From positions 9,424-73,423 of the forward strand of contig JANQFW010000135.1 in NCBI GenBank assembly GCA_028277625.1: a stretch of 64,000 nt of DNA, given 5' to 3'. The translations under genes were made by a program, and so were the position numbers. This document shows, piece after piece, positions 5,913-33,210 of this stretch; the first letter of the stretch is position 1; each line of letters opens with the position of its first letter. The DNA is from Candidatus Gastranaerophilales bacterium. GTDB lineage: Bacteria > Cyanobacteriota > Vampirovibrionia > Gastranaerophilales > JANQFW01. The notes under the pieces were generated by a model. That model searched no databases. It worked only from the letters and a program-made list of their open reading frames with translations, and was not told the DNA's origin.

Positions 5913-6390
5913 TTTATCTTACTCTTTCAAAATTAAATAAAACCCAGACTGAAAAAATTGACTTAATTATATTATCCTCAAAATATTGACTATGGACAAG
6001 TACTAAACTAAGCAAATAATTTATTTTTATATTTATACAACTTAAATTATTTTAGAAAAAGCTTATTATAATTATATTTACACGATTGATCTATCAGAAA
6101 ACTAATTTAGAATTAGCAGTAATTGTATTTACAACTTTAAAATTCTTTTCTGCAAATATACTACAACAATCATAAAGTAAGTGCTTTTTAATAATTAAGA
6201 AAATATTATAAAAACAAAAAAAACTTCACTTAAATGTTATTATAAAAATACAAAAAATAAAACTAAATAGCAACAAAAAAATTAAATAATAAAAATAACC
6301 ACCCTTTAAATTTTCTTACACGCTTTACCCCGCAATATATCACGAAGATACTCTCCAAAGCTCTTATAAGCTCCTTATAACGAGACAATC

Positions 6391-6422
6391 AGGTCAGGCT
6401 AAATGCCTGCCTTTTATTTTTT
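6391..6422 (+). terminator. intrinsic terminator oriented on the + strand, at the end of an ORF-free region
   Basis: AGGTCAGGC-TAAAT-GCCTGCCT hairpin (one bulged A) followed by TTTTATTTTTT. On the minus strand the hairpin is not followed by a T run. Confidence 0.55.
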
Positions 6423-6431
6423 AAATTTAAC

Positions 6432-8585
6432 TTAAGATTTTTTCATTAGCTCTAGCGATATTCGTTTTAATTCTGTATCGACAGACAGAACTTTAACACT
6501 TACTTGATCACCTACAGATAACACGTCATAAGGACTTTTTACAAATCTGTCACCCATTTTAGAAATATGTATCAGTCCATCTTGGTGAACCCCAATATCA
6601 ACAAAAGCCCCAAAGTTTGTAACATTGGTTACCACACCATTTAAAATCATGCCTTCATTTAAATCTTTCATTTCGTTAATGTCAGAATCAAATGAAACGC
6701 TACTAAACTCTTTTCTGGGATCAAGTCCGGGCTTTTTTAATTCTTGCAGAATATCTGTCAATGTAGGGATACCAATAGTATCTGTGACATATTTATTTAT
6801 GTTTATTTTGGAAATTAAATCTTGATTGCCAATTAGATCTTCTACATTTGAGCCTGTATCTTTTACCATTGATTGAACAATTTTATAACTTTCAGGGTGT
6901 ATAGCAGAATTATCTAATCTATTTTTACCGTTTTTGATTCTTAAAAATCCTGCGCATTGCTCAAATGCTTTTTTACCTAATTTTGCTACACTTAAAAGTT
7001 GTTTTCTTTCTTCAAAGCTACCATTTTCAGCTCGGTATTTAACAATATTTTGAGCAACACCTTTATTTATACCAGAAACATAAGATAATAAGGCCTCTGA
7101 AGCAGTATTTAAGTCAACACCTACAAAGTTTACACAAGATTCTACGCATAAATCCAAAGATTTTTTTAATTCTTTTTGATTGACATCATGCTGGTATTGG
7201 CCAACACCTATAGATTTAGCGTCTATCTTTACCAGCTCAGCTAAAGGATCTTGTAATCTTCTGGCAATACTAATTCCGCCTCTTACTGTAACGTCAAGGT
7301 CAGGAAATTCCTTTTGAGCTGTCTCTGATGCAGAATAAACTGATGCGCCAGCCTCGCTTACCACTACTGATTTAATTTTAAGATTATTTTTCTTTATTAT
7401 ATTTTTAATAAAAATATCTGTTTCTTTAGATGCAGTACCGTTGCCAATTGAAATTAAGTCTACATTATACTTATTGATTAATTCTAAAACTATTCTCTCT
7501 GCTTTATCAACCTGCTTTTGAGGCTCATGAGGATATATTGCAATAAATTCTTTGTAATTACTGTTATCATCAATAACTACTACTTTGCATCCGGTTCTAA
7601 AGCCAGGGTCTACGCCCATTATTACTTTGTATCCTGCGGGTGGCGATAAAAGAAGATTTCTTAGATTTTTTGAAAAAACATTAATTGCCTCAGCTTCAGC
7701 TTCTTGAAGTTTTGTTGCAAAGACTTCGTTTTCTATTGAGGGATAAATTAGACGTCTGAAGCTATCTGTTATAGCGTCTTCTATATCTTCATAAAAAATA
7801 AAGCTTGTGTTTTTTATTACTTTCCTATCAATAAGTTCGAGCACATCATCTTCGTTGACCTCAATTTTGTAGGATAAAACCTTTTCTTTTTCTCCTCTTC
7901 TTATTGCAAGTATACGGTGAGATGGAGATCTTTTTATTGGCTCTGAGAAGTCATAGTAAGTTTCGAACTTGGATTTTTTATTTACCCAGTCTTTTTTAGG
8001 CTTAGATGCAATCAATCCTCTGGCAGCCGTAAAGTTTCTTACGGTTTCTCTTATTTGCGCATCATCAGAAATAACTTCAGCTACAATATCTAAAGCTCCT
8101 TCTAATGCATCTTCTATAGATTCTACACCTTTTTCTTTATCTATATAGCTACTTAAAACATCTTCACGGGAGTTTTTAGGATTTATTTGCATGAGTATAA
8201 AATCTGCCAAAGGCTCAAGACCTTTTTCTTTAGCTATAGTAGCTCTTGTTCTTTTTTTAGGCTTATATGGCAGATATAAATCTTCTAACTTTTGCTTATC
8301 AACACACTCTACTATTTGCTTTTCGAGAGCAGGCGTTAATTTTTCCTGGCTTTGTATGGATTGCAGAACAGTTTCTTTACGTTTTTGCAGCTCTGTATAG
8401 TATTCCAGCTTATCGCCTATGTCTTTTATTTGGATTTCATCCAATCCACCTGTTTTTTCTTTTCTGTATCGCGATATAAATGGAATAGTGGCGCCGTCTT
8501 TGAATAAAGCCACTGTATTATTAACAGAATCCTGTTTTATGCCTAAATCTTTACTTATATTTTCTAAAATAAACTGTTCGCTCAT
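6432..8585 (-). CDS. tex: Tex-like transcription accessory protein (YqgF/RuvC-like, HhH and C-terminal S1 domains)
   Basis: The ORF track gives 6432..8618. I place the start at the ATG at 8585 (MSEQFILENIS...) because GGAGG lies 8 nt upstream. PFISRYRKE, the YqgF-like GVDPGFRTGCK and a C-terminal S1 domain (GMILNGVVTNVTNFGAFVDIG) are typical of Tex. Confidence 0.9.
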   Translation of the reverse strand: MSEQFILENISKDLGIKQDSVNNTVALFKDGATIPFISRYRKEKTGGLDEIQIKDIGDKLEYYTELQKRKETVLQSIQSQEKLTPALEKQIVECVDKQKLEDLYLPYKPKKRTRATIAKEKGLEPLADFILMQINPKNSREDVLSSYIDKEKGVESIEDALEGALDIVAEVISDDAQIRETVRNFTAARGLIASKPKKDWVNKKSKFETYYDFSEPIKRSPSHRILAIRRGEKEKVLSYKIEVNEDDVLELIDRKVIKNTSFIFYEDIEDAITDSFRRLIYPSIENEVFATKLQEAEAEAINVFSKNLRNLLLSPPAGYKVIMGVDPGFRTGCKVVVIDDNSNYKEFIAIYPHEPQKQVDKAERIVLELINKYNVDLISIGNGTASKETDIFIKNIIKKNNLKIKSVVVSEAGASVYSASETAQKEFPDLDVTVRGGISIARRLQDPLAELVKIDAKSIGVGQYQHDVNQKELKKSLDLCVESCVNFVGVDLNTASEALLSYVSGINKGVAQNIVKYRAENGSFEERKQLLSVAKLGKKAFEQCAGFLRIKNGKNRLDNSAIHPESYKIVQSMVKDTGSNVEDLIGNQDLISKININKYVTDTIGIPTLTDILQELKKPGLDPRKEFSSVSFDSDINEMKDLNEGMILNGVVTNVTNFGAFVDIGVHQDGLIHISKMGDRFVKSPYDVLSVGDQVSVKVLSVDTELKRISLELMKKS

Positions 8586-27185: not shown

Positions 27186-28310
27186 TTAGACAAATAAGTT
27201 GAAGTATTCAGCAAAAACATAAAGTTGAGTCTTTTTTGTTTTCTTAGATTCTTTTAGCAAATCTAAAGAAATAAAGTCTTTAATCAATTGATTAGATGTT
27301 TGATTTGTAACTTTTAAATGTTCTTGCACATCTTTAGTGCTAATAATAGGCTTTGAATACAGTAATTTTAATAGTTTTTCTGCATTTTCAGAACGTCTGC
27401 CAAGGCTTGAGACTTTAGCCTCAGCCTGATTTCTAATATCTACGATTTTTTCAAGAGTTTCTTTACTTTTTTGGGCTGTATCTCTTATACTAATAAGGAA
27501 AAATCTTATCCATTGATCCATATCATCTGAGCATCTAACTCTTGTTAATGAATCATAGTAATCTCCTCTATATTTTTCAAAGAAATCTGATAAATATAAA
27601 GTGGGTTTAGTTAATATACCCTTTGAAATAAGATGCAATGTTATCAAAAGTCTTCCTATTCTTCCATTGCCGTCTAAAAAAGGATGAATTGTTTCAAATT
27701 GATAATGACTTATCGCTATTTTTATTAATTCTGGGATTTCGAGTTCTTCGTTATGTATAAATAATTCTAAGTCTGTTAACAGTTCTGGTAGATCTTCGTG
27801 TGTTGGAGGTACAAAAAACGCATCTGCTGGACTTGGGCCTCCTATCCAATTTTGGCTTTGCCTAATTTCTCCCGGCAGCTTATTTTTTCCTCTTACGCCC
27901 TGAAGTAACACTGCGTGGGTTTCTTTTAATAGCCTGACTAATAAGGGTAGCTCTTGTAAGCGCTCTATGGCAAAATTCATGGCATGTGTGTAGTTTTGCA
28001 CTTCTTGCCAATCATCGCGCTTTTCAGGTGATATTTCTGATATAGAAAGAACTGCATCATCCATTAAGGTTTGAGTACCTTCTATTTTGCTTGAGGTTGT
28101 TGATTCTTTGAGAATATGCATATGAATAAAGAAATCAACTTGGGGAATTAGCTTTGAATAAGCGTTTAGCTCACCTAAAAGTCTGTTTGCTTCTTCAAGC
28201 AACAAATTTATTCTTACGTCTTCCCACTGATAGTTTTTATTTATAAGTGAGGGAAGGAAGCTTTTATATTTGTATTGTTGTTTATATTTTCCTGCTATAA
28301 ATTTACTCAT
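27186..28310 (-). CDS. Fic-family protein (class II, N-terminal inhibitory helix, C-terminal wHTH-like tail)
   Basis: 374 aa. Active-site motif HPFLDGNGRIGR. Upstream SSKIEG matches the (S/T)xxxE(G/N) auto-inhibition motif. Confidence 0.9.
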   Translation of the reverse strand: MSKFIAGKYKQQYKYKSFLPSLINKNYQWEDVRINLLLEEANRLLGELNAYSKLIPQVDFFIHMHILKESTTSSKIEGTQTLMDDAVLSISEISPEKRDDWQEVQNYTHAMNFAIERLQELPLLVRLLKETHAVLLQGVRGKNKLPGEIRQSQNWIGGPSPADAFFVPPTHEDLPELLTDLELFIHNEELEIPELIKIAISHYQFETIHPFLDGNGRIGRLLITLHLISKGILTKPTLYLSDFFEKYRGDYYDSLTRVRCSDDMDQWIRFFLISIRDTAQKSKETLEKIVDIRNQAEAKVSSLGRRSENAEKLLKLLYSKPIISTKDVQEHLKVTNQTSNQLIKDFISLDLLKESKKTKKTQLYVFAEYFNLFV

Positions 28311-28529
28311 GCTTAAACCAAATGTAAGTTAATTGATTTTTATCTTACATTATAGCAATATAAATGTAAAGATAGTCAACTTATGCTACATTAGACCAGC
28401 TAAACATATAAATAAGATTACAAAAACAAATTATAATACCCCATATTGTTTATGATAAAATTTTTTTATGTTTACATATATATAAATATCATAAACCTGA
28501 GCTGAGTCAGAATGAAATAAAGGTGAATT

Positions 28530-29060
28530 ATGAATAGAGATCTAATAAAACTTATACTTAATCATCTTTGGGAACATTTTATATTAATATTTACAATTAT
28601 TATACCTATTTGGGTAGCTTGGTATCCTGGAAAATTTGACAAACTTGATTCTAAAATTTACCTGACATTTATAATTATAATTCTTGTAACGCTAGCAGTA
28701 TCGATTAAGTTTAATTATACAATTTATAAACATTTTTCAAAACAAAATAACAGGCTACCCAAACTAATTAATATTAAAGGTGAATATTATATTTTTGAAC
28801 CGTGTGACTTTTTTTCATCACAATCAATAGTAACTTTTCATTTTAAAGGTGATACAGAACAATGTATTGGGATTGGAGATCTAGAAACTGTTATATCTGA
28901 TTCTAAAAAATTACAAGTGCGACTAAAAACTATAATTAATAAATCTTTTGATAAAAGATTTATTGAAAAAAATAAAGGAAAAATTGTTTTAAAACCATCT
29001 GTCCCAAATACTTTACTCGCTTTTTTTAGCCAAATTCAAGAGGAAGCAAGCAATGGATAA
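28530..29060 (+). CDS. hypothetical membrane protein (2 TM plus a C-terminal domain of about 100 aa)
   Basis: 176 aa. Two clear hydrophobic helices (HFILIFTIIIPIWVAWY, IYLTFIIIILVTLAVSI). GGTGA lies 5 nt before the ATG. Overlaps the next gene by 8 nt. No family recognised. Confidence 0.6.
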   Translation: MNRDLIKLILNHLWEHFILIFTIIIPIWVAWYPGKFDKLDSKIYLTFIIIILVTLAVSIKFNYTIYKHFSKQNNRLPKLINIKGEYYIFEPCDFFSSQSIVTFHFKGDTEQCIGIGDLETVISDSKKLQVRLKTIINKSFDKRFIEKNKGKIVLKPSVPNTLLAFFSQIQEEASNG

Positions 29061-29454
29061 AACTAATAAAAATACTAATATCGCTAGAGTTGCAAAAGTA
29101 AATAATGATAAAAATATCGTTATAAATAAAGGATCGAATGCTGGAATAGAAATGGGACAAGTCTTTTTAGTTTATAAAGTTGGAGATGAAGTTTTTGACC
29201 CTGAAACAGAACAAAGCCTTGGATATATTGAAATAGTTAAAGGTAAAGGAACCGTTACTCATTTACAGGACACTATGGCTACCATTACCTCCACAAAGGT
29301 AAAAAAAGAAGACAAAAGAATTATTTATAAAACACCTACATCTTTAGGTTCTCTATTCAGTGCTATGTACGGAGGAAGAGAAGAAATTTTAGAGGATTCT
29401 CAGATATTACCATTTGATGGGCCTGAAGTGGGGGACTTTGCAAAACTAATTTGA
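29053..29454 (+). CDS. hypothetical soluble protein, probably beta-rich
   Basis: 133 aa. Translationally coupled to the previous ORF. Alternating pattern IVINKGSNAGIEMGQVFLVYKVGDEVFDPETEQSLGYIEIVKGKGTV. No family recognised. Confidence 0.6.
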   Translation: MDKTNKNTNIARVAKVNNDKNIVINKGSNAGIEMGQVFLVYKVGDEVFDPETEQSLGYIEIVKGKGTVTHLQDTMATITSTKVKKEDKRIIYKTPTSLGSLFSAMYGGREEILEDSQILPFDGPEVGDFAKLI

Positions 29455-29475: not shown

Positions 29476-29844
29476 TTGCAGAAAATCAGATTAATGATAG
29501 TAAAAGAAAAAATAAAAAAAGAAATATTAAGTATTATCTTTAAACACTTAAACCCTAATAATTGCACTATTTTTTTATTTGGCTCTTATGCCCAAAATAA
29601 AGCAAAACAATCATCTGATATTGACATAGGCTTTGTTTCTACTGAAAAAGTATCTCTCAATAATATTTTAACCATAAAAGAAGAGCTTAATGAAGTGGTT
29701 AATGTATTAAGAGATATTGATTTTGTTGACTTTTCAGCAGATAATCTTGATAAAGATTTTATAAGAATTGCACTGAGGGACATTGAAATATGGCACAAAA
29801 CGAAAGAATCATCAAAAATTTTGAACAATTTGCTAAAGCCCTAG
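29476..29844 (+). CDS. minimal nucleotidyltransferase (MNT, putative type VII antitoxin)
   Basis: 122 aa. LFGSYAQNKAKQSSDIDIGF is the GS-x(n)-DxD Pol-beta-type NTase motif. Confidence 0.85.
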   Translation: MQKIRLMIVKEKIKKEILSIIFKHLNPNNCTIFLFGSYAQNKAKQSSDIDIGFVSTEKVSLNNILTIKEELNEVVNVLRDIDFVDFSADNLDKDFIRIALRDIEIWHKTKESSKILNNLLKP

Positions 29845-30224
29845 ATTCCTTAATTGAAACTGCTCAACAAGAATTAAAAAATTCTGTGCAAAATGATTTG
29901 GCTTTAAAAAAAGCTGTAAGAGCAGGTATAATTCAATGCTTTGAATATACTTTTGAAATGCTCTGGAAGTTGTTAAAAGTTATTGCAGATGAAGAGCTTA
30001 TTACCGCAAATAGCCCTAAAGCTGCCTTTAAAGCAGGCTTTAAATTAGACTTGATACAAGAAAGTGAAGAAGAAATTTTTAATGAAATAATAAAAAAAAG
30101 AAACCTAACGGTTCACACCTATAATGAAGATACAGCTCAGGAGGTTCGGAATTTTATTGTAAACGAAGCTGTAAAAGTATTTATAAACATTAAAAATCGT
30201 ATAAATACATATATTTATGAGTAG
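29790..30224 (+). CDS. HEPN domain protein, HI0074-like (NTase substrate-binding subunit, putative toxin)
   Basis: 144 aa. N-terminus NFEQFAKALDSLIE and an Rx4H motif (RNLTVH) are typical of the HI0074 family. Overlaps the MNT gene by 55 nt. Confidence 0.8.
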   Translation: MAQNERIIKNFEQFAKALDSLIETAQQELKNSVQNDLALKKAVRAGIIQCFEYTFEMLWKLLKVIADEELITANSPKAAFKAGFKLDLIQESEEEIFNEIIKKRNLTVHTYNEDTAQEVRNFIVNEAVKVFINIKNRINTYIYE

Positions 30225-30254: not shown

Positions 30255-31265
30255 TTGTATCAGTTGTATAAAATCTTTGGCTTAATTCCAGTCAGTATAG
30301 CAGGATCCCTGATAATTAAAGGTCTTATAAAAGGTCTTGAACAAAACGGCTGCATTATTAAAGAATGCCATATAAATGATTTTAATAAAAATACCATGGC
30401 TGAATTTAAGCCTGATTTTATTATTGGTTATGACTATGCACACTTTATGGACTCCGATGTTGAACAAATAATATCTAAGTCCAACATACCTGTTGTTCAC
30501 TATTTTGCGGATGACCCTATGTCAAAATTTTCGCACGGTGGGAACCATAGCCTTTTTAATAAGCTTTCAGATTCTAATGGAATTGTATGTTGCTGGGACA
30601 AACATTATTTGAATGTTTTTAATAATACCTCTTTCTATTTGCCTATTGGGATAGATACGGATGCTTATAACTGTGATAGCTTGTTAAATGGCCATGATTT
30701 ATCAGACAAAATAGTCTTTGTTGGTAGGCCCTTGACGGAAAAAAGGATTAATTTGTTATGTGATATTATTAAAAGGTTTCCTGAAGATTTATTTATATAT
30801 TGCTATAAACGACACTTTGATAGCAGTTTGGACTATATCAAGCAAAATAATTTATTAGATTATAAATATTTAAATTATTATGAAAATTGCTATAGAGGCT
30901 TTTTGAACAATGAAGTCGAACTCGCAAATGTTTACTCGAAAGCGGCTATTATACTTAATATAACTATGCAACAAGGTGTTAGCAGTATAAACTATAGAGT
31001 ATTTGAAGCATTTGCTTGTGATGGATTTTTGATTAGTGATTATACCAAGGATATTGCCGAATACTTTAATGATGGTGAAGACTTAGTCTTTTATAGCGAT
31101 AAAAATGATTTGTTTAACAAAGTTTTATTTTATTTGAAAAATGAATCGTTAAGAAAAAATATCTCTCGAAATGCTAAAAGTAAATTATTGAAACATCATA
31201 CGGTAAAAGAAAGAGCAAAATATTTGATTCAACAGCTAAAAAAATATATTGAATATGATCTTTAA
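30255..31265 (+). CDS. CgeB-family / group-1-like glycosyltransferase
   Basis: 336 aa, TTG start. The C-terminal part (RVFEAFACDGFLISDY...GEDLVFYSDKNDL...LLKHHTVKERAKYL) resembles the Glyco_trans_1_2 domain of CgeB-like proteins. Confidence 0.6.
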   Translation: MYQLYKIFGLIPVSIAGSLIIKGLIKGLEQNGCIIKECHINDFNKNTMAEFKPDFIIGYDYAHFMDSDVEQIISKSNIPVVHYFADDPMSKFSHGGNHSLFNKLSDSNGIVCCWDKHYLNVFNNTSFYLPIGIDTDAYNCDSLLNGHDLSDKIVFVGRPLTEKRINLLCDIIKRFPEDLFIYCYKRHFDSSLDYIKQNNLLDYKYLNYYENCYRGFLNNEVELANVYSKAAIILNITMQQGVSSINYRVFEAFACDGFLISDYTKDIAEYFNDGEDLVFYSDKNDLFNKVLFYLKNESLRKNISRNAKSKLLKHHTVKERAKYLIQQLKKYIEYDL

Positions 31266-31442
31266 TTTATTTAAAATACTAGCAGTAGTTGGATTTATTT
31301 GGTAAATTTAAAACTATATTGCCCCAAAGGAAATTTGGTGATAGTCATCACCTTTCTTATGTCATCGCTATAAACTTCTGATACAACAGCTTAAGTTTAT
31401 TTGAAAACATCAGAATTCGATAGGCCACTACTAAAAATTTAA

Positions 31443-32784: not shown

Positions 32785-33021
32785 ATGAAAATGAAAAGAC
32801 TTTTAGCCAAGCTTAAAAAAGGAGCAAAAAAAGGTCAAAGTTTGGTTGAATATGGATTAATATTAGCTTTAGTATCAGTGGTTGCTATTGCAGTACTTAA
32901 TACAATGGGACAGCATATCAGAAAAACTGTAGATACCGTCAATGTAGAATTAAAAGGTGCTCAAGAGAAATCTAAAACCACTATAAATCTTGAAGAAGAT
33001 GGTAAACCTAAGACTCCTTAA
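32785..33021 (+). CDS. flp: Flp/Fap family type IVb pilin
   Basis: 78 aa. Basic leader ending KKG, followed by QSLVEYGLILALVSVVAIAVL. This is the G/xxxxEY processing motif plus a hydrophobic helix. Confidence 0.85.
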   Translation: MKMKRLLAKLKKGAKKGQSLVEYGLILALVSVVAIAVLNTMGQHIRKTVDTVNVELKGAQEKSKTTINLEEDGKPKTP

Positions 33022-33033
33022 AAGGGCGTAGGC

Positions 33034-33210
33034 ATGATACAATGGGGCTTAATAGTAGCTCTAATATCAATAGTAGTTATTGGATTATTAAAGTTAACGA
33101 TATCTGAGCATATCAAAAATAACTTTAGCACTATCAATGATGCAATTAACATTGAAAGCAAAATAGAAAACATTGAAGAAGAATCTACACCTGAAGACAA
33201 TGAAGAATAA
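33034..33210 (+). CDS. leaderless Flp-like small protein (58 aa, not in the ORF track)
   Basis: My translation is MIQWGLIVALISIVVIGLLKLTISEHIKNNFSTINDAINIESKIENIEEESTPEDNEE. It is paralogous to the mature part of the upstream Flp and lies in the same frame, 4 codons after its TAA. Confidence 0.5.
   Translation: MIQWGLIVALISIVVIGLLKLTISEHIKNNFSTINDAINIESKIENIEEESTPEDNEE

Follow-up and report, generated by a model that had tools for sequence, protein, structure and literature searches.

What is the function of two short, overlapping open reading frames (ORFs) that lie between a Fic gene and an MNT-HEPN pair in the genome of a Candidatus Gastranaerophilales bacterium (GCA_028277625.1)? The window analysed here is a stretch of 64,000 nucleotides (nt) of contig JANQFW010000135.1, positions 9,424 to 73,423 of the forward strand, and the coordinates below are counted from its first letter. 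A preliminary description had regarded the two ORFs, termed A and B, as a candidate defence or toxin-type module. The follow-up reported here somewhat favours an autonomous, mobile two-gene module acting against phages or other mobile elements, in which A would be a membrane effector built like Cap15 and OptE and B its protein partner; an abortive-infection or guard type of system is the most likely form. The defence role is inferred from genomic context, and the evidence is comparative throughout. What is observed directly is a conserved, tightly linked and co-diverging gene pair of recognizable architecture, located on phages and plasmids, in restriction-modification (R-M) operons and in defence islands. 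The pair and its translation signals are arranged as follows.

28521..28526, + strand: Shine-Dalgarno-like AGGTGA of ORF A (sequence inspection)
28530..29060, + strand: ORF A, ATG start, 176 amino acids (aa), unnamed membrane-protein family with two transmembrane helices, a predicted cytoplasmic beta-barrel and a C-terminal helix (ORF list)
29040..29046, + strand: Shine-Dalgarno-like GAGGAAG for ORF B, within the 3' end of ORF A (sequence inspection)
29053..29060, + strand: overlap of ORF A and ORF B, 8 nt, ATGGATAA, with the B start codon and the A stop codon (sequence)
29053..29454, + strand: ORF B, ATG start, 133 aa, unnamed soluble family with an FlgT_C/TsaP-type barrel, a variable linker and a conserved C-terminal strand (ORF list)

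The two ORFs of 176 and 133 aa and their 8 shared nucleotides, as first described, were confirmed from the ORF list and the sequence, and the overlap implies translational coupling. Comparison of candidate ATG starts indicated that the same 8-nt overlap is also possible at L025-27, L029, L046, L054 and L067 (homologous loci are given L numbers). ORF A and ORF B are real genes rather than chance reading frames, since relatives and conserved positions were found for both of them. A phmmer search of 1.84 billion representative proteins returned 40 relatives of A at E <= 1e-3, nearly all of 156-191 aa, while a profile search returned at least 81 relatives of B of 84-148 aa, all of them unnamed or labelled "hypothetical". 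A single-sequence word-index search had given 0 relatives of A and 2 of B, and phmmer (for A) and the profile search (for B) were needed to reach them. The pair is distributed patchily among Cyanobacteria, Melainabacteria, Firmicutes, Fibrobacter, Desulfobacteria, Leptospiraceae, Rickettsiales and one archaeon, and 37 loci were found among 185,579 species genomes with the search pattern used.

The linkage expected of a module holds elsewhere. An A-family ORF stands immediately 5' of B on the same strand at 70 of the 86 B loci, which represent 56 distinct pairs; five further loci are too short to judge, and 11 lack an intact A. These 11 comprise three decayed A fragments, one diverged 258-aa protein with two transmembrane helices, one TIR protein, two degraded B genes and four solo B genes (two distinct cases); L039, L069 and L072 are decayed copies. 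Among viral contigs of IMG/VR, 26 were found through B, and A lies directly 5' of B in all 25 informative ones, as counted with a hidden Markov model of A built from the independent phmmer hits. Conversely, B follows A immediately in 4/4 loci retrieved through A that have downstream sequence. For most pairs the A-B junction lies between -20 and +47 nt, and an overlap of 8 nt is seen repeatedly. Moreover, the pairwise-identity matrices of the two proteins are correlated (r = 0.79, a value reached in 0 of 2000 permutations), with A diverging faster than B (mean identity 26% vs 44%).

The domain structure of both proteins was delineated from alignments, hydropathy and models, and it is summarized in the following features.

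28566..28712, + strand: transmembrane hairpin of A, first helix at residues about 13-32, outside loop 33-42, second helix at about 43-61 (hydropathy and model)
28755..29000, + strand: beta-barrel of A, its best-conserved part (LPKL...YIFEP...IGxGxxETV...LQV...ILKP), residues about 76-157, with a predicted local distance difference test (pLDDT) score of 91-97 over residues 81-150
29080..29298, + strand: barrel core of B, residues about 10-82, with VINKGSxxG, DPxTxxSLG and LEIVKGxG...HxQ; strands of the low-confidence model span residues 10-82
29299..29406, + strand: variable linker of B, residues about 83-118, gappy and poorly conserved columns, pLDDT 29-46
29407..29451, + strand: C-terminal motif of B, LPFDGPEVGDFAKLI, F121 and D128 nearly invariant, modelled as a closing strand at residues 129-132

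The proposed layout of A, two N-terminal membrane helices followed by a C-terminal domain, was borne out by hydropathy and by an AlphaFold model computed with 34 sequences (pLDDT 85.8), which contains a helical hairpin (helices 2-31 and 41-72), a beta domain (78-156) and a C-terminal helix. In the alignment the two N-terminal helices are variable and the outside loop of about 10 residues is poorly conserved; the conserved domain that follows reads LPKLK...YIFEPS.LFS...VS.Y...E..IG.G.VETV...LQV...NK..IILKP, with invariant P77, G116 and Q129 and with P156 in at least 90% of the sequences. Six lysine or arginine residues follow the second helix (residues 60-83), so that the C-terminal barrel is predicted, by the positive-inside rule, to be cytoplasmic. 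The Foldseek neighbours of A are the N-terminal barrels of F1/V1-ATPase subunits and FliI, together with FlgT, and a BFVD fold search gave generic barrels only. That A belongs to no recognized family stood: the window copy has no Pfam, NCBIfam or PHROGs match and no PADLOC match at E <= 1, its profile met membrane-helix noise only among PDB sequences, and for 34 family members no family could be assigned from the Pfam matches listed (25 of 48 families), with PADLOC giving isolated weak matches to generic transmembrane effectors that were judged spurious.

The description of B as soluble and beta-patterned likewise agrees with the data, since the protein is rich in beta structure and carries neither a hydrophobic segment nor a signal peptide. 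The alignment shows no variation at L56, E60, G64 and Q72 and preserves the C-terminal motif PF..P.VGD.AK.I. The claim that B has no recognizable family needs qualification, as window B reaches FlgT_C (PF16538) at 16.8 bits, under the curated cut-off of 27. Such weak FlgT_C matches recur in 45 of 80 B members at E <= 0.1 (best 6.5e-6), MreC barrel matches occur in 11 of 80, the family profile finds TsaP in the PDB (3jc8, E 2.3e-5), and the neighbours of the low-confidence B model are FlgT, TsaP and ATPase N-terminal barrels. The sole PHROGs match of B is phrog_27728, of unknown function (1.2e-8). FlgT and TsaP belong to the rings that flagellar and pilus machines build in the periplasm. B resembles them weakly but consistently in sequence, and in structure FlgT lies near both B and the A barrel and TsaP near B, whereas B is a single-domain protein of 116-148 aa without a signal peptide and without linked flagellar or pilus genes. 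A flagellar or pilus role of B was rejected on the last two grounds, no such genes being conserved nearby.

The two proteins had also been thought to resemble each other in the C-terminal domain of A. The likeness holds at the level of fold, for the A barrel and B share largely the same Foldseek neighbours, and it fails at the level of sequence, where profile-profile comparison of A (whole protein or barrel alone) with B gave a probability below 1%, which is not significant; the resemblance is therefore one of fold class only. A 30-nt direct repeat of 73% identity joins window positions 28841-28870 (A codons 104-114, FKGDTEQCIG) and 29193-29222 (B codons 47-56, FDPETEQSLG). It falls where hhalign aligns the two proteins without significance and may be a trace of duplication or chance.

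The case for defence is drawn from the genomic contexts of the pair. In temperate phages and phage-plasmids it behaves as a moron oriented against the lytic genes, placed by genes for an XRE repressor, ImmA protease, Ant or integrase, or between portal and head genes. Representative phage and phage-plasmid loci are as follows.

L012: phage, one Ant anti-repressor gene on either side of the pair, XRE repressor and ImmA protease nearby
L028: phage, pair between portal and minor head genes
L086: phage, pair with terminase, portal, DNA polymerase and VapE genes
L094/95: Rep3/ParA phage-plasmid of [Eubacterium] tenue isolates
L096-98: pair near a serine recombinase

No match to window B was obtained among GenBank phages, and a Firmicutes B query found one cultured phage there, P7.1. 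As a separate observation, gut prophages L005-L013 (about 6335-6607) and L096 (7347-7484) carry a convergent ORF of 45-84 aa with one transmembrane helix that shares 8 nt with the 3' end of B; the public annotation of L096-98 includes this small ORF as a gene.

Membrane proteins that prophages encode next to their repressor are known to act by entry exclusion, and the phage copies raise this explanation for the pair as well: A, aided by B, would act at the inner membrane to block the injection or transfer of DNA and would leave the cell alive. The position of the temperate-phage copies by repressor, ImmA or integrase and opposed to the lytic genes, the membrane anchor of A and the carriage of the pair on plasmids all suit such a function. 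It is nevertheless considered unlikely, because the conserved soluble domains of both proteins are predicted to lie in the cytoplasm while the outside loop of A is short and variable, because the replacement of A by a cytoplasmic TIR protein and the nesting in R-M operons (both described below) suit a signalling or effector module better, and because no annotated exclusion family was matched in PHROGs, which returned nothing for A and only the above family for B.

Three plasmids carry the pair.

Psychrobacter pA27P3: 7.2 kb, carries A-B
Candidatus Megaera polyxenophila CP113875.1 (L076): 11.5 kb, from a ciliate endosymbiont, A-B beside VapC-Phd, with HEPN-MNT about 4.4 kb from A-B
C. estertheticum pCF016-34: A-B directly after a DUF262 gene

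The small modules of the Megaera plasmid are of the same kinds as those of the window islet. Plasmid carriage brings a toxin-antitoxin reading to the fore, in which A is a membrane toxin, B a protein antitoxin, and the pair chiefly stabilizes the phages, plasmids and islands that bear it. A small, tightly coupled two-gene unit found on a 7.2-kb plasmid, and on an 11.5-kb one beside VapC-Phd, suits addiction; lone B genes could be orphan antitoxins, and the faster evolution of A points in the same direction. Addiction as the main role is rather improbable all the same: it leaves the mod/res nesting and the chromosomal copies linked to chlH (see below) unexplained, and no DNA-binding domain, as for autoregulation in the style of type II antitoxins, was found in B by family scans. 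In any case it is compatible with defence, since many such pairs defend.

Further copies are associated with restriction systems and other defence-type genes. Nesting within a type III R-M operon, in the order mod-A-B-res, was counted in five groups of loci, and other copies lie near MmeI-type enzymes or in mixed defence islands.

L046, L061: mod-A-B-res in two Melainabacteria genomes that hold the nearest relatives of window A
L078-82: mod-A-B-res on a widespread gut element; two additional small genes separate B from res
L089: Fic-mod-316 aa-A-B-res
L090: mod-A, then the contig end
L091/L093: MmeI-type enzyme directly 3' of B
L083: MmeI-type enzyme two genes from the pair
L032 and other copies of its island: FRG, DUF4062, AAA_15 and DpnII-MboI genes; the L032 copy also holds a Mu-type transposase
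L036/37: AAA_15/21 and HNH genes nearby
L092: AAA_21 and RloB, DUF6119 nearby

The anticipated defence neighbourhood is found in phage immunity regions, on plasmids, within type III R-M operons, and near MmeI-type R-M, DUF262, AAA_15/21, RloB, FRG, DUF4062 and DUF6119. Neither protein maps to a housekeeping family in the Pfam, NCBIfam, PADLOC and PHROGs scans. Together with the linkage, these outcomes support the candidate defence or toxin-type module of the preliminary description: on none of the three points named as able to speak against it, namely unlinked homologues, a housekeeping family and a lack of enrichment near defence genes, did the result clearly do so.

Several smaller features of these loci may be recorded beside them. 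The two extra genes between B and res (L078 6367-7117, also L079-L082) encode a 166-aa protein with several transmembrane helices and an 85-aa protein, neither with a family assignment. At L031 (8798-9266), beside the A-B island, a Bac_transf gene of a polysaccharide-synthesis cluster is broken into pieces of 98 aa and 74 aa, which suggests insertion of the island there. Fic genes stand near A-B in three unrelated contexts, namely the window (27186-28310), L078-L080 (about 1400-2540) and L089 (1107-2285), with Fic_N and Fic domains where scanned; the Fic gene of L089 is followed directly by mod of the R-M operon in which A-B is nested. This recurrence may reflect shared cargo of mobile elements.

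B also occurs with partners other than a typical A. In the chromosome of Methanobacterium sp. ACI-7 (L074 7019-8399), the place of A is taken by a 313-aa CAP12/Pycsar-type TIR protein (TIR domain at 28.8 bits, cut-off 24.7) that ends 19 nt before B. In Lacticaseibacillus phage P7.1 (OP807343.1; L099 3646-4405), the gene for a coiled-coil protein with one transmembrane helix runs into the start of a B-family gene (E 1e-20), and this pair sits between XRE repressor/ImmA-like genes and a 387-aa integrase-like gene, the names having been given by eye because the record lists all genes as hypothetical. Just 5' of the P7.1 pair a 370-aa protein with an HsdR_N-like N-terminus (by eye) is encoded. A longer protein with two transmembrane helices precedes B in L071, the A barrel lacks transmembrane helices in Veillonella (L042), and A has a single one in L086. 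A constant small B with variable membrane or enzymatic partners is the pattern of sensor-effector immune modules.

Several observations weigh against a defence function. At about 11 cyanobacterial loci the pair lies 60-100 nt 3' of chlH (CobN-Mg_chel + DUF3479) on the same strand (L039, L043, L044, L049, L053, L055-L058, L060, L063, L070; A-B at about 7300-8400 in most), in Microcystis, Microcoleus, Tychonema, Aphanothece and other cyanobacteria. The far side of these copies varies and holds ordinary genes (PTPS, Band_7, an ABC transporter, DUF2382), and no defence genes were seen among the checked neighbours. Such a context is at odds with a defence island, and it fits vertical inheritance or a physiological role; besides vertical inheritance, the linkage could reflect a hot spot for insertion or a functional connection. 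The first 22 genome loci have mixed neighbours as well, including ABC transporters, Band_7 and response regulators, and the nearest relatives of window B are solo genes (L001/L002, L034/L035). The structural matches of A are weak (E 7e-3 to 4e-2, TM-score about 0.3 across the whole protein), the AlphaFold model of B is of low confidence (pLDDT 52, with only three sequences as input), and window A and B are unmatched at E <= 1 in PADLOC-DB 2.0.0 (5027 models). In Microcystis, two tandem B-family ORFs follow one A (L053 6611-7478; L057, L058 7508-8366; L063 7965-8754).

These copies give substance to a housekeeping or physiological membrane function, for instance in membrane organization or stress sensing, which mobile elements would carry incidentally. 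The synteny with chlH, conserved across cyanobacterial genera among ordinary genes, speaks for it, as does the fact that the fold relatives of B, FlgT and TsaP, are structural ring proteins. The distribution over so few of the species genomes is too sparse and patchy for this explanation to be comfortable, decayed copies occur, phage, plasmid and R-M contexts dominate outside the chlH group, and no curated housekeeping model was matched; a physiological role is accordingly given little weight, and an anti-phage or anti-mobile-element module stays the preferred explanation.

How would such a module relate to known systems? The S-2TMbeta effectors Cap15, of CBASS (an antiphage signalling system based on cyclic oligonucleotides), and OptE, of Panoptes, combine a two-pass anchor with a small barrel that controls a membrane-disrupting state, the OptE barrel beginning at S73 (PMC12657218). 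A likewise possesses two N-terminal transmembrane helices with a barrel fused directly after the second (near residue 76, against 73), and it belongs to a two-gene operon with a small partner in defence contexts. In contrast, window A has no S_2TMBeta/Cap15 profile match (E <= 1), none occurs among the matches listed for the 34 A members, and Cap15 is outside the top 50 structural neighbours of A. The conserved neighbour of A is moreover a barrel protein without a cyclase or nucleotidyltransferase signature, and the pair shows no conserved linkage to CD-NTase/SMODS or mCpol. The MNT protein of the window pairs with HEPN, not with A-B, and is absent beside A-B elsewhere. Membership of A in S-2TMbeta was rejected for want of a family profile match and of a linked synthase of nucleotide second messengers. 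Since B carries no cyclase or nucleotidyltransferase signature, any signal would pass by protein contact rather than by a cyclic nucleotide.

Two further comparisons concern the context rather than the fold. PrrC, in the EcoprrI type Ic locus, responds to phage inhibition of the restriction enzyme by setting off abortive infection (PMC12707154), and as an accessory module nested in an R-M operon it parallels A-B between mod and res. PrrC is, however, a single anticodon nuclease in a type I locus, whereas A-B has no nuclease and is nested in type III operons, and most A-B copies, that of the window included, are outside R-M operons. Guarding of the PrrC kind may thus fit the nested mod-A-B-res copies and not obviously the window copy; no mod or res gene is among the genes listed at 22-35 kb of the window, of which the six nearest were scanned. 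The RexA-RexB pair of phage lambda resembles A-B in being prophage-encoded by the immunity region and in joining a cytoplasmic to a membrane component. It differs in gene order and sizes, no relation in sequence or fold was seen, and RexB has four membrane helices. Until now no curated family, PADLOC system or paper has been found for the A-B pair, a search of open-access text for literature on it having returned none.

A working mechanism can be put forward on the basis of these comparisons. A would be anchored in the inner membrane by its two-helix hairpin, with the small beta-barrel facing the cytoplasm, and B, a cytoplasmic barrel protein, would be made in step with A through translational coupling. 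As the conserved partner is a protein and not a nucleotide synthase, B is proposed to bind the barrel of A and thereby to gate the assembly of A molecules. A phage cue, presumably, would remove or alter B, upon which the hairpins of A might cluster and breach the membrane, so that the infected cell would no longer support the phage. A mixed A/B ring as opposed to an all-A ring offers a concrete model, suggested because both barrels resemble ring-building domains (the ATPase crown and FlgT, and TsaP in the case of B). A bolder and doubtful extension makes B a portable cytoplasmic sensor wired to different killing parts, namely the barrel with two transmembrane helices, the coiled coil with one, or TIR; a mixed A/B ring of F1-crown-type barrels would hold the pore shut until a phage protein pulls B away, and the nested copies, triggered by a phage anti-restriction protein, would constitute a guard of type III restriction.

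If the pair is protective, it represents a widespread and compact immune module of about 310 codons, with representatives in phages of gut Firmicutes, in cyanobacteria and Melainabacteria, on plasmids of Psychrobacter and of a Rickettsiales symbiont, and in one methanogen. It would imply that a protein partner can replace a cyclic nucleotide in driving the membrane-effector design of CBASS and Panoptes, a two-helix anchor with a small barrel. In addition, the repeated nesting in type III operons provides a direct route to examining whether guards against anti-restriction are carried by restriction systems beyond type I. Protection by the pair can be tested now, as cultured material is available in the form of [Eubacterium] tenue isolates, Psychrobacter pA27P3, C. 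estertheticum pCF016-34 and phage P7.1 of Lacticaseibacillus.

The window copy itself is surrounded by the following genes, all of them outside the module.

27186..28310, - strand: SoFic-type Fic gene, divergent from A (Fic_N + Fic; PADLOC SoFic 1.4e-114)
29476/29494..29844, + strand: MNT gene, Polbeta/NTP_transf_2 (family scan)
29790..30224, + strand: HEPN gene, NTase_sub_bind, HI0074 family (family scan)
30255..31265, + strand: Glyco_trans_1_2 glycosyltransferase (family scan)
31337..31352, + strand: terminator-like hairpin, the sole one on this strand between A and the next housekeeping gene (consensus scan)

Family scans bear out the flanks first assigned from the letters, a divergent Fic gene and an MNT-HEPN pair followed by a glycosyltransferase; the gap between B and MNT is 21 nt, as first given, if MNT starts at TTG, or 39 nt with the ATG start of the public gene call. 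Since the sole terminator-like site comes after the glycosyltransferase, co-transcription from A onwards is possible, and A through the glycosyltransferase may form one transcript. The preliminary description had offered, as an alternative, a five-gene operon of A, B, MNT, HEPN and glycosyltransferase that modifies a surface glycan, and the common strand and short gaps of the five genes, with that single terminator-like site at their end, are in its favour. It is very improbable and goes unsupported, because A-B adjoins MNT-HEPN or a glycosyltransferase at 0 of about 90 other loci, the closest case being the Megaera plasmid with its more distant MNT-HEPN; the mobile unit is A-B alone. The islet has the look of several small, independent modules stacked together, SoFic, A-B and MNT-HEPN. 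It extends over about 4 kb with a slightly lower G+C content than its surroundings (0.26-0.30 vs 0.31-0.36); tRNAs and flanking repeats were sought around it and none was found, and a promoter scan gave matches at or below shuffle expectation and was uninformative.

Some minor observations complete the picture of the locus. The HEPN and MNT ORFs share 55 nt (29790-29844), at the 5' end of the former and the 3' end of the latter, whether the longest ORFs or the public gene call are taken. The outer flanks, named from translations only, are ORFs of nuoL/M/N-type membrane subunits upstream and an aminotransferase-like ORF downstream, and two small ORFs of 78 aa and 58 aa (32785-33210), with hydrophobic N-termini that appear Flp-pilin-like by eye, lie 3' of the aminotransferase-like gene. 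Finally, an identical sequence is present in coral metagenome runs.

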